This document shows positions 9,017 to 57,684 of a stretch of 64,000 bases of DNA, piece after piece. The stretch's first letter is position 1; each line of letters starts with the position of its first letter. Origin of the DNA: Podarcis pityusensis (taxonomy: Eukaryota); the NCBI GenBank assembly GCA_964106645.2, contig OZ067048.1, one strand, 5' to 3'. Under the pieces are notes generated by a model that was not told the origin of the DNA, ran no database searches, and was given only the letters and a program-made list of their open reading frames with translations. Position numbers and translations under genes: made by a program.

Positions 9017-10297
9017 TTAATGGCTGTGCTGATACAGTGCTTTGTCTCTTAAATACTCCTCCAAGCAGTGAACTGCAAAGGGGTCATAGTCAGTGTCAAA
9101 CTTGTTGGCAAAGAAGTGGTGTTTTCGTAGCATCCAGTTCAAGTCTCCCACTCCAAAGACACACACAGAGCGGATGTGAATTCCATTACAAGGTGGGTAC
9201 GGAGCACCCCGGGACACATCCCCCTCAAAGTAATGCCACTTAACAAACCTGGCAAGAGCATTCATGTCAGAGACATCATATTTCTCGCTGGCAGAGACTG
9301 CACCTGGAACCTCGGGAATTCGCTGAACAGTAGCCCACAAGTATTCATCAGGACTGTAAGTATCTTTGGCCCATTCTATAAAAGTAAGGATTTTGTTGTT
9401 CTCTAGGACATATTCAACAAACCTCCGACTAACAACAAAGTAAGCACTGCCAGAGAAAATGGGTGTATTAAGAGGTGGGCGTTGTTTGTCTATTCCCATA
9501 TTCTTCACTTTGCCATCAACAACTTCATAATGCTTCTTCCATCGTGTCTCCTTGTTTGAAGGCATTTTCTCGGTTTCCAAACTATTTTCACCCTTGAGAG
9601 CTTTTAGTTTCTCTACTATTTCTTGGTTAGTCTTGATAGGAAAATCCATACCACAAAGATTGATCAGGTATTTCCAGCTTGCGCTCCTCCTGTAGAGATC
9701 CTTCATGCAGTTGAGGTCTGCTTGCACTCTACTCCACGAAGCATATACTACACTCTCCAACTGGCTGGCAACAAAGACATTGTCAAAACATGAAGCAATC
9801 CCCTTCACTGCAGCCAAGAAAGACTCAGGAGACTTCTTATCAACATGAATGCAGTAATAGTTTTGTGGTGCGTAAATCGATCTCAGAAGTCTATCAAACA
9901 TGTTAATTTTGTGATAAATTACTATTGAATATGCTATGGGAAACTCAGCTTCTTCTTTGCTCAGAGGCTGCATAATATACTTTCGCCTCTTAATAAAGGA
10001 GTTGCAGTCTGCTGTCATGTTGATGTAATCATTTGGAGTTAGTTTCAGGCTCTTTTTAAAAGAAACAGTTAAGAGCTCCAACTTCACTTTCTGAATTTCC
10101 TCTGGATCTCCCTGCAATATCTTGGAGCAGTTGATGTTACTATTTGGGTATTCATCAGTTAGCTCCAGACGTCCATGATGTATGTAGCTTGGCTTCTGGT
10201 GGATTTTGATAAGGGACAAGGTGCCTGCTGTAAAAATCAACACCAGTAGAAACTTGAAGCGTAGGTTATGACAGTGACGAAGTTTCCTTCTCAGCAT
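9017..10297 (-). CDS. GCNT1: Core 2 beta-1,6-N-acetylglucosaminyltransferase (C2GnT-L, GT14), single coding exon, 426 aa
   Basis: ORF 9017..10327. Likely start MLRRKL at 10297, with an in-frame upstream ATG at 10327. Type II TM segment FKFLLVLIFTAGTLSLI and GT14 motifs IAYSIVIYH, YCIHVDKKS, WKYLINLCGMDFPIKTN, FSGSAYF, YSPDEYLWAT, FFANKFD. Splice acceptor cactattctAG places the exon start at 10399. Synteny with RFK and PCSK5. Confidence 0.97.
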   Translation of the reverse strand: MLRRKLRHCHNLRFKFLLVLIFTAGTLSLIKIHQKPSYIHHGRLELTDEYPNSNINCSKILQGDPEEIQKVKLELLTVSFKKSLKLTPNDYINMTADCNSFIKRRKYIMQPLSKEEAEFPIAYSIVIYHKINMFDRLLRSIYAPQNYYCIHVDKKSPESFLAAVKGIASCFDNVFVASQLESVVYASWSRVQADLNCMKDLYRRSASWKYLINLCGMDFPIKTNQEIVEKLKALKGENSLETEKMPSNKETRWKKHYEVVDGKVKNMGIDKQRPPLNTPIFSGSAYFVVSRRFVEYVLENNKILTFIEWAKDTYSPDEYLWATVQRIPEVPGAVSASEKYDVSDMNALARFVKWHYFEGDVSRGAPYPPCNGIHIRSVCVFGVGDLNWMLRKHHFFANKFDTDYDPFAVHCLEEYLRDKALYQHSH

Positions 10298-12695
10298 TTC
10301 AGAGTGTGTTTGCAACCTCCCATGCATCTAAGAGACTTTCTTCATACGCATGATCAGGATCCAGCTTCAGAGCCTTCTGTCTGCATTTCTCAGAAGTTCC
10401 TAGAATAGTGAAAGTACACATAAATTCTAATGAAAAATTAAATTCTGCATTTTTTATCTGTGTCACAGATAATCTGTGGAATGTTAAAGGTGCAATGCTT
10501 ATTCACTAGTAGTTCTGTTGTGCCATTGGCATGCCCAGTCCAGGGCTAGTCTAGGGTCAAGGGTAGCCAACTTGGAGCTGTCCAGATACTATGAGCTGCA
10601 AATCCAATCAGCCCCAGCCATCATAGCCAATACACAGGGATAATGGGGTTGTAGTCCAAAACAACTGAAGGGAATCGTGTTAGCTATCTTTGGCCTAGGT
10701 TGTTGTCTCTCTCTCTCTCTCTATATATATATGGCCACTTTACACATTATGCTGGGACCTCTCAGGAACATTTGTCATCTCATAGTCCTAATTAATTTAT
10801 AGGAAAAACTTAAGGTATGCTACATCATCTGTTCTGTTTTATATCTGCTAAAATCATAAACATTTTAGTTACAATATCATTCTAATTATCAATGGCTGAA
10901 CAACCTTCGGGCTCCTACTGCAAGTTTACAATCTAAAAATTACAGACAGGAAAAGAGGAAGGTAAGTAAGTAAAAAGGAACAACAACTGATTTGATAAGT
11001 TTATTATTACATTTATGTTCTGCTTTTCCTCCAAGCCACTCAAGGAAGCATATAAAGTTTGTGTACAGAGCAAGGCAAACAGGTAGTGAGTGGCTCAAGG
11101 TTGCTTCGCTTTACGGTTGAAGGGGGAGCTGAACTTGACTCTTCTTTGTCCTAGTCAGACACTCTAACCATTATTATACCTCTGACCCAGAAAATATCAC
11201 ATGAATTAAGGACAGTAGAAAATAGAAGATTAAGAAGCTGCTTAAATAAAGACAAAGAGGAAGCAAACTTGATATCAAGAGGAACAGACGTCTGAGCACA
11301 GGATGCAACAAAAGTGATGGGGGTGGGGAACTTTGACTGGTATTTTAAAATACAACACATGTGGTGATGTGGGAGAGGGAGGTAAGAAAAGAGAAACCAG
11401 TGAAGGCGCAAAACTACAGAAAGTCATGCAACCTGACAATAGTTACTCAGAATCCTAATTCTGTTCAGTCGATTTTGCTCTCTAGTAAGCCTACAAAGGA
11501 TCAAGACTGAGCCAGGTCATTTTGCTGCTAGAGGCAAAAGAAAGAATGCTGACCTCGGCAGCCCCCTTCCCTTAGTCATCACCTGAGGCGACTGCGGGGG
11601 GGGGGGGCTGTTGAGTGAAAGGAGGCCAAAGAGGAGCAGATGGCGAGGGGTCGCAGGGGAGGAGGCAAAATGCTCCTCAGAGGCCAGATCCACCGCCTCA
11701 CCCAGCCTCATGGGTGGGCTGGTCCTGCACTGGGATGGATCTAATGCTGGTCCTGGAACAGACCTGTTGAAATTAATGAACTTAAGTAGCTTAGGTTCAT
11801 TTATTTCAATGGGTCTACTCTGAGTAGGACCAGCATTGGTTACAACCCAAAGGACTGCAACCCTAGACACAAAGTAGCTGCAGTAGTTTATACTGGATAG
11901 AAGCAGTGAAGAGAAACTAAGATAGAATTGTTTAACTGGTATAGTTTTCAACCTTTCCTTTGATATGTTTCCTTTCATATCCAACTGCAACAGTTGTTGT
12001 GGCCAAAAGTCAATAAGCTGCATGATCACATGTTAAGACTGAATCAAGCAAATGGATAACTCCCATGATGGATGTAAGCTGGCACAGAAGACCAAGTCCT
12101 TTTGTCTAATTAAACATAAATCTGAGATTTCTCATGGAAATAAAATACTAGGATATTTAGAGACAGGCTGAAGTTTTCTGATTTTAAGACACTAAGCAGC
12201 TAACAGTGCATTTCTTCAATCTGTAATTATTGGTTTTTTTAAGGTATCCTAGCATTACTTTTGACACCACAGAATTAAACAGTGATTTAAACTGAAAATC
12301 TACAAAGAAAGAGAGATAATGAAAGTTTTCTGAAAGCCTTTAACTTAAAAGATGGGTGCTTGGCTAAACATTAATGTTACCTTAAACGAAAGTTTACATT
12401 CTTTGGAACCTCTAATTATATTCTTATTGAATCAGTCTGAGAAAAAGATCACTTCTCATCAAGTTCCAGCAGAAGTTTATAGCAAATAAACAATCAGCAC
12501 AGAGAATGGGGCATCATTCATTTTACCATCAACTCATTTATCTGTGGTAACATACATTCCATGCACATCTAGGACCAGAACATCTGAAAGCAGCCCATGA
12601 AGTCCCATTTCTGAAGCTAAACAAATGTGGCCAGAGTGCGAATGGAAGAACCTGGTAGAAGCTGCCCTGAGTTCTGAGAAGCAAAGGCAAAAATA

Positions 12696-31676: not shown

Positions 31677-31858
31677 CAGTGCTTTTTTTCTTTAAAAAAA
31701 ATGTTTAGAGGTACTCTCTTTTTTCTACTCATATTGAAATACTGCCCCTCAATGAGGCCAAACTTAGATTCACAGGGGTATGCCTAGGGGTATACATTTA
31801 GGGGCATAGGGGTTTAGGGGTATGCGTACCACTGCATCCCCCCAGAAAAAAAGCACTG
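31677..31858. mobile_element. hAT MITE
   Basis: TIR CAGTGCTTTTTTTCT, perfect 8-bp TSD GCTACACA. Confidence 0.85.
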
Positions 31859-31955
31859 GCTACACACATTGTTAGAGGAGGTATCTTTTTTCACTGGATT
31901 ACGTTAGGTTTCTGCTTTCAATGAGCAACTTAGATCTCGCTGAAAACTTGATGGT

Positions 31956-32644
31956 CAACACACACAATTGCCTCATTACGTAAATCATGTTTAGAACACC
32001 ACAACACAGACGTAACTGGCTGTAAAGTAACATAGCATTATATGTAATAAAACTGTGATTTAATCGTCATATAAAAATATTGCAAAGCACAGTTCCTGAT
32101 GGCAATAACATATCATATTACTATTAACCTTCTATATGTATTATTATCGTAAAGTCCAAGGATTGTCAAGTCCAAAGATTGTCACGTTCAATTATTACAA
32201 CGTACAGTTCCTGTTGCCAATGCTTGACTTGACAAGCTTTGGACTTCACGACAATAATACATGTAGAAGGTTAATAGTAATATGATATGTTAGTGCCGTC
32301 AGGAACTGTGATTTGCAATTTTTTGATATGACGATTAAATCACAGTTTTATTACAGTGGTACCTCGGGTTACATACGCTTCAGATTACATACGCTTCAGG
32401 TTACAGACTCCACTAACCCAGAAATAGTACCTCAGATTAAGAACTTTGCTTCAGGATGAGAACAGAAATTCTGTCCGGCAGCGCAGCAGCAGCAGGAGGC
32501 CCCATTAGCTAAAGTGGTGCTTCAGGTTAAGAACAGTTTCAGGTTAAGAACGGACCTCCGGAACGAATTAAGTACTTAACCCAAGGTACCACTGTACATA
32601 CAATGTTATGTTACTTTACAGCCAGTTACGTGTGTGTTGTGGTG
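31956..32644. mobile_element. Unclassified fold-back insertion with ~176-bp inverted arms
   Basis: Arms 31997-32172 and 32226-32644 (excluding the nested MITE), about 13 mismatches. Flanking direct repeat (TG)AAAACTTGATGGT. Confidence 0.8.
32354..32594. mobile_element. Same MITE family, opposite orientation, nested in the fold-back element
   Basis: TA|CAGTGGTACC...GGTACCACTG|TA interrupting the right arm of a long inverted repeat. Confidence 0.88.
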
Positions 32645-33459
32645 AAAACTTGATGGTGTCAGAGTCTCTGCACTATCAGTGCTTCTAGACTATCAGTTCT
32701 GCCCTGGTTCCTTCTAGTCCAGCTGAAGGAGGTAAGCTCTGACCAGTTTGCTGTCACTCAGCTGTTGGGCTGGCTCAGTACCAGCCAGGAGAGGTAGGAG
32801 GAGGAGCAGCAGTAGGAGGCATCACTTTAGGGAACAGTGCAAGATGCTGATAAGCACACACACATTCACCACAGTTCAGAGATGTGACTAACAATCTGGC
32901 CCCTCGTCTGACCTCCTTTCCATTGGCATATTCTTTTCTGGTTTTCTCCTCCATTGTTTGGAATCATTGCTATCCATCCATTTCCTTGACTCCCCCCAGC
33001 CCATATCCTCCCTCCTTTCCTCTTCCCCCTTCATGCATATCTGCCTCCTCTAAAGAAAAGTCTCCCTCCAGCTAACACCTCATTCATTTAAAATCTGCTC
33101 TGTCTTCCTCTCATCACTCCAAATCCTCCCTCCATGATTGCATCCTTTCTCATGTCTTCTTCCTTCCTAATTTCTGCCTATTTATATCATCTTAATTCTT
33201 TGCAGCATCAAGTCTTATTTCCTCAAAACAAGACTGTGTATGCACACACACAAACTTTTCTTCCATGCAAGTTGCTGTTATTTACATCACAGTTTCAAGT
33301 GTGTGTATGAAAAACATAAGTTATAGAGGTCAAGAAGGCATGATGTCACCCAGGAAAAATGCTGAAGAGGCTGCAGCTCCATTGGCACATACCTCCGTAT
33401 GTGGTGGGAATGCCCCCAAATTTAATCAGTGCTGCAGTAAATCTGCAAAATAACAAAAC

Positions 33460-39379: not shown

Positions 39380-40330
39380 GCATTTGCTGTGGCGGAAGGG
39401 GGTCGCGATTACTACTCGGGTTGACACGCGTCCTCGAATACAGACGAAGCGAGCCCCGCTAGCGCGCAAGGCAGCTTCTCCTCCCAGGATTCCTCGCGCG
39501 CTGCTCGCGGAGGGGCTGCTGGCCGCTGGCCGGCCACGCGCAGGCGCAGAGGCGCCCCTTCCGCCGTCGCTCCTCCTCCCTCCCCACAGCCCCGGAGCGG
39601 GGAGCGCGGTGGCTCCGCCCACCAGGGGGCGGGCTCGAGGCGCGGTTGGCCGCAAGAGCTGGAACCTTCCAGCGGCGTTTCGCCCCCGCCTCCTGTGACG
39701 CGGCGCGAGGCCCCGCCCCTTCCGCACCGGCACAGCAGCCCGAGTTCGCCGGCCGCCGCGCGCATTCTGGGCGGAGTGGGCTGCGCGTGCGTGACTCGGC
39801 CCGCTCTCTCCTCGCCGCCGAAGGTCTTCCGAGCGCCGCGCCCGCCCGCCCGCCCGCTGCTGCCGCCGCCTCGGGGCCGGACCGGCCTCCTCCGTGGCGG
39901 CGCGGGGCTTCTCTCGGCTGGCCATGAAGAGCCTGCCGTACTTCTGCCGCGGGGAGGTGGTGCGCGGCTTCGGCCGGGGCTCCAAGGAGCTGGGCATCCC
40001 CACAGGTGAGCGCGGCGGCCGCTCGGGGCCTTTCCCGGAGGGAGACGGGAGAGAGCCGGGCCGGGCCTCCCTCCCTCCCTCCCTCCCTCCGTCCCGGTGG
40101 CGGGCTTCGGTTTCGTTCCGCCCACCAAACGCTGCTTCTGCCGCGGCTTCAGAGACTTCTGAATGCCCCGGGTCCCGCATGCCGAGTGTCCCGGACTTGA
40201 AGCCAAACGGGGAAATATCCGCGACCTGTTTAACCGGGATGTTGTAAGGAGAGAGAATCTGATACCGAAACCGGCTTCTTGTGCAGGAATGCGGGACCGT
40301 GTTCCCGACGGCGGCATAACGAAGAAGAGG
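39380..40330 (+). promoter_or_regulatory. RFK: CpG island, RFK promoter with GC boxes and a CTCF-like motif
   Basis: CpG-dense region spanning RFK exon 1. ccgccc/gggcgg boxes. CCACCAGGGGGCGG at 39619-39632. Confidence 0.85.
39924..40005 (+). CDS. RFK: Riboflavin kinase exon 1 (MKSLPYFCRGEVVRGFGRGSKELGIPT)
   Basis: gccATG start context, GFGRGS(K)ELGIPTAN signature, donor CAG|GTGAGC, 82 nt, phase 1. Confidence 0.97.
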
Positions 40331-50965: not shown

Positions 50966-52498
50966 CCGTATTTTTCGGACCATAGGACGCACTTTTTCCC
51001 CTCCAAAAATGAAGGGGAAATGTGTGTGCGTCCTATGGAGCGAATGCAGACTCCTCAGCTTCAGCGATAGCAATGCGAAGCCTCCGAAGCCTGCGCTCCG
51101 GAGGCTTCGCGTTGCTTCCGCTGAAGCCAGGAGAGTCTGCTCTTTGAGGCTGGCGGTGGGGGAAAGCAGCGCTTCCCCCATCGCCAGCCCCAGAGGATGG
51201 GGGGCAGCGGGAAGGCGCGCGACGCCTTGCCGCTACCCTCCAACCCGGCTTCGAGGCTGGCGGTGGGGAAAGCAGCGCTTCCCCCATCGCCAGCCCCAGA
51301 GGATGGGGGGCAGCGGGAAGGCGCGCGACGCCTTGCCGCTACCCTCCAACCCGGCTTCGAGGCTGGCGGTGGGGAAAGCAGCGCTTCCCCCATCGCCAGC
51401 CCCAGAGGATGGGGGGCAGCGGGAAGGCGCGCGACGCCTTGCCGCTACCCTCCAACCCGGCTTCGAGGCTGGCGGTGGGGAAAGCAGCGCTTCCCCCATC
51501 GCCAGCCCCAGAGGATGGGGGGCAGCGGGAAGGCGCGCGACGCCTTGCCGCTACCCTCCAACCCGGCTTCGAGGCTGGCGGTGGGGAAAGCAGCGCTTCC
51601 CCCATCGCCAGCCCCAGAGGATGGGGGGCAGCGGGAAGGCGCGCGACGCCTTGCCGCTACCCTCCAACCCGGCTTCGAGGCTGGCGGTGGGGAAAGCAGC
51701 GCTTCCCCCATCGCCAGCCCCAGAGGATGGGGGGCAGCGGGAAGGCGCGCGACGCCCTCCCGCTACTCTCCAACCCTCCTGCGGGCTTTTGCGGGAGATG
51801 GGGGAATTCCCCCACCTCCCGCAAAAGCAGGCAAAAGCCGCGCGCTCTTTAAAGGGGCTCCGCGGCTTTTCTAGGAGGTGGGGGAATTCCCCCACCTCCT
51901 AGAAAAGCCCGCAGGAGCCACGCACCCTTTAAAGAGCGAGCGGCTCTTGGGGGCTTTTCCCCAAGGAGGGAGAAGGGACTGACTGGCCGAGTCAGTCCCT
52001 TCTCCCTCCTGCGGGCTTTTGGGGGAGATGGGGGAATTCCCCCACCTCCCGCAAAAGCCCGCAAAAGCCTCGTGCTCTTTAAAGGGGCTCCGCGGCTTCT
52101 GCTGGCTTTTCTAGGAGGTGGGGGAATTCCCCCACCTCCTAGAAAAGCCTGCAGGAGCCGCGCACCCTTTAAAGAGCGCGCCGCTCTTGGGGGCTTTTCC
52201 CCGAGGAGGGAGAAGGGACTGACTGGCCGTTTCAGTCCCTTCTCTCTCGTGGTCGAAAAGCCCGCAGGAGTCGCGCGGGGCTCCTGTGGGCTTTTGCGGG
52301 CTTTTGCGGGAGGTTGGGGAATTCCGCCACCTCCCGCAAAAGCAGGGAGAAGGTCTTGGAGTAGCGGACAGGCTGCGTGCAGCCTGTCCGCTGCTCCCAA
52401 AGCTGCGGGGGGGAAATAATATTTTTTTCCTTGATTTCCCCCCCTGAAAACTAGGTGCGTCCTATGGGCCGGTGCGTCCTATAGTCCGAAAAATACGG
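50966..52498. mobile_element. CCGTA-type Tc1/mariner non-autonomous element (1533 bp) inserted in a CR1
   Basis: 27-bp TIR CCGTATTTTTCGGAC(C/T)ATAGGACGCAC with 1 mismatch, TA TSD. CR1 ORF2 peptide continues across the insertion. Confidence 0.9.
51146..51776. repeat. 106-bp GC-rich minisatellite, ~6 near-identical copies
   Basis: Unit gaggctggcggtggggaaagcagcgcttcccccatcgccagcc...aacccggcttc. The 106-bp period is also visible in the ORF track. Confidence 0.95.
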
Positions 52499-56893: not shown

Positions 56894-57306
56894 TTATCTA
56901 AAGGAGTAACTTTCATCATCATACTCCAGTTCATCTACTTCATCATCTTCTAGAAGTCCATATTTAAATTTGCGATAGACTGTGCCATCTTGGCCCATAT
57001 AAACAATATCATCGTCATCATCGTCATCATCATCTTCATCCCGGTCCTTGTATTCAATCACTTGATCTTCATAATAACTGGTGCCCTGGTAGTGGTTGCT
57101 TTTGAGAGAGGCAAGTGCCTTTGCATTATCTCCCAGCTTTTCATATCCACCTTGCTTTACTGGCTTGGGCTTGGCCCGTGATCTTCTCCATATGAAAACA
57201 GGAGCTCCAATGGCAAGGAGCAACAAAATGAGTACGGCAATAACCAAAGCTGCAGCTTTGCCTTTCAGTCCCTCTGGCAAGTTAGCGATGCGTAATATAC
57301 ATTCAT
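56894..57306 (-). CDS. PCSK5: PCSK5 long isoform (PC5B/PC6B) terminal exon: TM helix and cytosolic tail
   Basis: gtttttcAG acceptor at 57308/57307. Encodes DECILR..., TM AAALVIAVLILLLLAIGAPVFIW, YEKL, and acidic clusters DEDDDDDDDDD-IVYMGQDGTVYRKFKYGLL-EDDEVDELEYDDESYSFR*. Confidence 0.95.
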
Positions 57307-57684
57307 CTGAAAAACAAAGCCTTCATATATATACACATATATACACACAAGCACATATGCATGCACGTGCGTTTTTAAAAGTGGAAACAAATTTTAGGAT
57401 AAGGATGAAGAAGCTTTTCCACCCAGTTTTGAATTCATCACTAACAACTGATTTGTTCATGCACACAAAGATATAAACATGAATTTCTCTCTTCACACTC
57501 ACACAAGGCCACCACTGCCAATACTAGTTTTGGTTACAATCGTAACCCTGCTTGCTTGGGAGTAATCCCTAACTCAATAGGACTTAATTTTGTGTAGGCA
57601 TAGTTAGGAACAAACGACACTAGAGAATCAGCAGGTGAATTCCCATTGATAAAACACCTGAAGAAATTTTGAGGTGTATTTATA

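Follow-up and report, generated by a model that had tools for sequence, protein, structure and literature searches.

The layout of insertions left by EN+ Penelope-like elements (PLEs) is described in several publications. PMC8557442 gives as typical of PLEs the presence of partial tandems, of a 5'-truncated copy in inverse orientation and of a tail of 30-40 bp at one end, and the account in PMC3846280, which includes Pen2/Pen2a, describes inverted pLTRs with a target-site duplication (TSD) of 8-10 bp and a 31-bp tail, as well as mobilization in trans via the pLTRs alone. For a lizard element, PAc of the anole, PMC11167929 reports cutting and extension of both strands by the PLE protein, with two start sites on the RNA that bound the tail. 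The insertion studied here lies in a 64-kb stretch of lizard DNA (hereafter, the window), and it and the repeat family to which it belongs share with these insertions the head-to-head truncated copies, the tail at one end, the TSD, the partial tandems and the two start sites. They differ in that the family unit has neither an RT/GIY-YIG ORF nor a complete hammerhead; the tail is 41 bp long, compared with the published 30-40 bp (PMC8557442), and the TSDs measure 10-16 bp, compared with 8-10 bp in rotifer elements (PMC3846280). The first-pass annotation had called the structure unclassified, a label that has to be given up, as the layout is on record for PLEs (PMC8557442, PMC3846280), and we regard the insertion mechanism as ordinary. 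We suggest that the locus is very probably a head-to-head insertion of two truncated end copies of an ORF-less family of ~1.17 kb, likely made in trans by a PLE RT-endonuclease and later entered by a MITE. The family would best be labeled a non-autonomous family of Penelope type for which no partner was found.

The insertion is flanked by an exact 15-nt direct repeat, with the left TSD copy at 31941..31955 and the right copy at 32643..32657. Read by eye, 3 nt at the left junction (the last 3 nt of the left copy, which also fit family read-through) and 2 nt at the right junction fit the element sequence as well, so the true TSD is 10-15 bp; of the 13-15 bp proposed at first, the exact repeat stands and the length is corrected. 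Next comes a 41-bp tail (31956..31996, minus strand), which spans the interval separating the family's two fixed start sites, is matched by our tail pattern and is present on the left arm only, as had been noted. The left arm follows (31997..32172, minus strand), corresponding to family positions ~42-217 by inverted-repeat search and family alignment. The so-called loop (32173..32225, minus strand) is the left copy running on to its truncation at ~268-270, plus the inversion junction, and other copies match through 268. The right arm is inverted and tail-less. Its inner part (32226..32353, plus strand) ends in the TA at which the MITE inserted, and the final 2 nt of its outer part (32597..32644, plus strand) are common to the target duplication.

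The two arms bear out the first description of 176-bp arms with about 13 mismatches: 13 of 175 aligned columns differ, with 92% identity over the 130-nt inner pair (32043-32172/32226-32355), 94% over the 50-nt outer pair (31997-32046/32595-32644) and a spacer of 53 nt. Folding of the strand gives z = -29.7 against 20 shuffles, as expected of any long inverted repeat. The loop had been singled out as a feature in its own right, which it is not: 32173-32223 is simply ongoing family sequence, and the motifs reused in it belong to the family's set of internal repeats, a 16-bp tandem among them. The nested MITE was correctly recognized. It is a high-copy element with terminal inverted repeats (32354..32594), bracketed by TA at 32352-32353 and by the TA duplicated on its insertion (32595..32596, read from the sequence). 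Three more copies with 85-93% identity lie inside the window, and hundreds of contigs from four runs mark its ends by departing at 32352 and 32596-32597. We take it to be Tc1/mariner-like from the TA duplication; the label mariner-like, together with Neptune and Sauria SINE, is presumptive. Another small element of high copy number, whose inverted ends are 15 bp long, occupies 31677-31858, ~80 bp to the left of the insertion.

A genome search with 31956-32353 gave at least 96 matches among the best 40 of 69 candidates, and most of the top matches span the query from position 1-50 to 268. The matches are continuous across tail, arm and loop, and the three are therefore one family sequence. The tail pattern was found 28 times in the genome and the arm pattern 67 times, with no match to either reversed control. 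After further genome searches, one of which covered the best 40 of 41 candidates, 77 loci collapse to 43 distinct places, most of them without a second arm. Copy starts cluster near position 1-5 or 30-50, two sites ~40 nt apart, and far ends are variable. Divergence from the column majority averages 4.3% over 25 other copies, and a second subfamily is ~75-80% identical; a search with this divergent subfamily (best 40 of 426 candidates) brought no new place linkable to an ORF among its 72 matches. The family is probably uncatalogued. We found no publication on a non-autonomous hammerhead Penelope in a lizard, a result that says nothing on absence from Repbase or Dfam. At about 11 of the 43 places (e.g., L059, L060, L061, L065 and L078), the family segment ends within a few bases of ~528-536, five of them at the identical base. 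This cluster sits ~36 nt downstream of a TATA-like stretch, and the family RNA may have its 5' end at position ~528-536.

The full extent of the family is seen at locus L029, where one 1165-bp unit is followed by a 225-bp repeat of the unit's end, that is, a partial tandem. At three other places the sequence passes beyond the tail and into a next unit, and overlapping independent copies tile one 1165-bp circle. No stop-free stretch in the unit exceeds 67 codons, so the unit has no coding capacity, and there is no poly(A) tail, as the first-pass annotation had noted for the insertion itself. An old internal duplication of ~215 bp is present in the unit (L029:840-1055 versus 1190-1405, 71% identity). 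It is possible, if not our preferred reading, that the origin is Penelope-type all the same and that what we see is the end, or an internally deleted relic, of some autonomous element that has been lost or has diverged too far to be recognized, and not a unit that moved by itself. The whole ~1.17-kb unit is present at L029 only among the 43 places, there are two subfamilies, and our genome searches scored the best candidates only (40 of 69, 40 of 41 and 40 of 426), all of which favor such a remnant. Against it stand the independent copies that overlap and tile an ORF-less circle, and a search with the inner part of the family in which all 16 candidates were scored and none leads into a Penelope-like ORF.

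The head-to-head layout is seen in the window and at 24 other places. An exact flanking repeat of 8-16 bp is present in 15 of 19 head-to-head copies; 13 bp is the commonest length (6/15), and 14 reach at least 10 bp. Among mismatched end pairs (n = 342), none reaches 10 bp and 21 reach 7-9 bp. Six further head-to-head places, several of them diverged, have repeats of 12 and 16 bp in two cases and none in four. Tabulation across copies, a check put forward at the outset, thus gives a flanking repeat of 8-16 bp in 17 of 25 head-to-head copies and none in 8, counts that cover head-to-head copies. Of the first 15 TSD-bearing pairs, 14 carry the tail on a single arm and none carries it on both.

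We propose that a Penelope-type head-to-head insertion would arise as follows. Staggered nicks 10-15 bp apart would provide two 3' ends. One would prime synthesis from the outer of the RNA's two start sites and yield the tail, the arm and the loop, ~270 nt in all; the other would prime from the inner of these sites, ~41 nt further in, and yield 176 nt. The two copies would end prematurely and be joined at 32225/32226, repair would duplicate the target, and the MITE would enter one arm later. The intermediate would be an RNA, with the left copy read from the window minus strand. Both window arms carry six non-majority alleles in common, one of which occurs in 0 of 25 other copies; this fits a single template, and later gene conversion could add to the sharing. 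Junction microhomology averages 1.73 nt over 26 junctions, compared with 0.70 nt in a null simulation in which 0 of 5000 runs reached 1.73, a statistic that leaves out 4 of 30 junctions as unalignable, takes the window's two values by eye and uses a null that ignores target preference. The excess is a hint of double priming at nicks and no more, and it differs mildly from the account of priming in PMC11167929, where the priming sites are described as lacking homology to the cut DNA. One-sided tails in 14 of 15 pairs, arm-shared alleles and a small excess of microhomology fit two-strand priming at two RNA sites, as was seen in vitro for the anole element. An alternative model for head-to-head pairs is self-priming on an antisense template (PMC3846280). 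No palindrome is found at the window's inversion junction 32225/32226, a single junction, and self-priming may still apply.

The same genome holds an autonomous PLE family that serves as an internal control. It has a 910-aa ORF with RVT_1 and GIY-YIG domains and a CxxC linker, and we take it to be Neptune-like, a tentative clade label drawn in part from PMC8557442. A search for the GIY-YIG family (best 150 of 1184 candidates) gave three matches, of which one led to this control family and none to the window's family; a search with the control itself matched in 144 of 144 scored candidates (best 144 of 3353). From the match list, we hand-picked 18 opposite-strand pairs, a choice that selects for the head-to-head layout and not for TSD or tail. 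An exact repeat of 11-18 bp flanks 17 of the 18, one of these being inside a microsatellite and uninformative; 13 bp is the usual length (8 pairs), and the outer ends are offset by 29-49 nt in 16 of 18. The resident family thus resembles the window's family in its head-to-head pairs, its TSD and its one-sided tail. It differs in having a complete minimal type I hammerhead, near-identical scores and many long open frames, and in DNA sequence, where comparison of the two families gave only short, chance-level matches (E 0.04 or worse). The idea of a retro-inserted hairpin, raised in the first-pass annotation, is accordingly supported by both the family data and the in-genome control, and two of the options listed there, the tailed pair of inverted pLTRs and the head-to-head insertion by double priming, turn out to be one and the same thing and fit both data sets. 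Control copies such as L129:1724-4486 and those at L111-L128 have near-identical scores over the 144 scored copies, with many long or intact ORFs, and many are head-to-head pairs with TSD and tail; the control family looks recently active.

A tblastn search with the control protein found only nearby fragments of the control family, at 2 of the 43 places, and none in 18 larger stretches, and searches of this genome found no RT or GIY-YIG sequence joined to the window's family. Since no autonomous partner was found, the mobilizing enzyme is something that we infer. Four architectural features of EN+ PLEs are present in the family, namely the inverted truncated copy, the tail at one end, the TSD of variable length and the pLTR-like partial tandem, and because an ORF is absent we do not file it as an autonomous PLE.

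Longer family copies have a hammerhead-like core at ~430-460, made up of CUGAAGA, one additional A, a stem II of 4 bp and GAAAC. A helix of 6 bp, with GUC upstream, closes the core, and helix I is at most 1 bp, compared with 4 bp in the control, where the minimal motif (defined in PMC4209133) is complete. The CUGAAGA core with stem II and a GAAAC-like motif occurs in 31 listed family segments, again with a helix I of only 1 bp, and a hammerhead-shaped pattern was found at eight places in the genome, all in the window's family and none in an autonomous element. An Rfam scan of seven loci at E up to 5 returned 10 weak matches and no hammerhead. The earlier remark that no hammerhead is visible in the window is correct, and the reason is that the window copy stops at ~270, before the core. 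We considered extra conservation of the hammerhead-like hairpin between the subfamilies and rejected it as weak (52-55 of 60 positions versus ~79% elsewhere, with neighboring bins at 80-90%). An additional internal inversion is present in L006, L023, L068 and L138, with its breakpoint at or near the hairpin (~400-435).

Non-autonomous PLE derivatives (MRC1 and other non-autonomous Chlamys, as presented in PMC8557442) and animal non-LTR retrozymes (as presented in bioRxiv 10.64898/2026.07.22.740005) are likewise ORF-less, with a pLTR-like partial tandem, presumed mobilization in trans and a hammerhead-like core. The unit of ~1165 bp is longer than the 51-972 bp given for retrozymes in that preprint (reptile mean, 176 bp), whose tandem-repeat search was limited to a 1000-bp period. 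The family also differs from both groups in that no array with two complete hammerheads and no similarity to an autonomous partner were found. Only a partial tandem with one core is present, and we therefore do not classify it as a non-LTR retrozyme. A bolder and rather doubtful version of the Penelope-type reading is that the family is an orphan retrozyme-like passenger of ~1.17 kb, moved by a PLE enzyme with which it shares no sequence, carrying a hammerhead core that lacks helix I and primed at both nicks via 1-6 nt of microhomology. If true, such a passenger would show what cis-signals are minimally required for double priming of the Penelope type. More generally, an ORF-less passenger would offer a compact means of testing what signals in the RNA are required by the enzyme.

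It is improbable that the family is instead a SINE-like RNA inserted by a LINE of L1, CR1 or RTE type through twin priming. LINE-type priming is also compatible with TSDs of 10-16 bp and variable truncation, and fragments of LINE-like ORFs, identified by eye, lie in the window and in the fetched family loci. A poly(A) or simple-repeat tail is absent, however, and in its one-sided tail and its partial tandem the family agrees with the resident PLE control. Twin priming by L1 takes the inverted part from upstream of the direct part, whereas both arms here cover the same stretch of the family, each beginning at one of two fixed starts.

A fold-back DNA transposon, or a MITE with long terminal inverted repeats, would account for the long inverted arms, the absence of an ORF and the flanking direct repeat, and still we consider it very unlikely. 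Arm, spacer and TSD lengths vary from copy to copy, neither the termini nor the TSD are fixed, the second arm is absent at most of the 43 places, and ~40 extra bases sit on one arm. That the insertion is a cDNA of a viral copy-back or panhandle RNA, another of the options first raised, has the hairpin shape alone in its favor and is scarcely credible for a dispersed host repeat that extends ~900 bp past the part seen in the window, whose copies average 4.3% from the majority and mostly lack this exact hairpin.

The insertion is not private to this genome. Contigs of related organisms cover the right junction (A, B, C and D), the left junction (A, D and E), and the inversion joint and arm-MITE joint (A and D), where the run of organism A may share its source with the window. 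With junctions found in contigs of five related organisms, the insertion is common to these relatives. No empty site was seen among the joints listed from two contig comparisons, the first listing all but 249 of its joints and the second covering the left flank. No RNA run was listed as containing the sequence, and two runs that we guessed to be RNA gave one and two contigs resembling other family copies, which are uninformative for the window locus. Contigs of D and E have three extra bases at 31962, as does the family, so the window allele carries a small tail deletion there. As for the locus itself, the insertion is decayed, is common to several relatives and shows no sign of function. What it offers is a record of Penelope-like integration, and together with its nested MITE it could act as a common marker among related organisms that carry both.

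The flanking genes named in the first-pass annotation were found. A Branch-family ORF, GCNT1-like, lies at 9017-10327 on the minus strand, and a weak Flavokinase match, corresponding to an RFK-like exon 1, falls within 39795-40244 on the plus strand. GC-rich bins occur at 26-28 kb and 38-40 kb of the window, and we infer that the first of these islands is the GCNT1 promoter. The insertion is ~4 kb from the first bin and ~7 kb from the RFK-like start. An ORF at 56894-57322 (minus strand) had no Pfam match; we take it to resemble PCSK5 at its cytoplasmic end, in convergent orientation to the RFK-like gene. Two GC-rich tandem arrays lie between the RFK-like exon and this ORF, one at 51142-51776 with six 106-bp units (99%) and one at 51774-52248 with two copies of a 240-bp unit.
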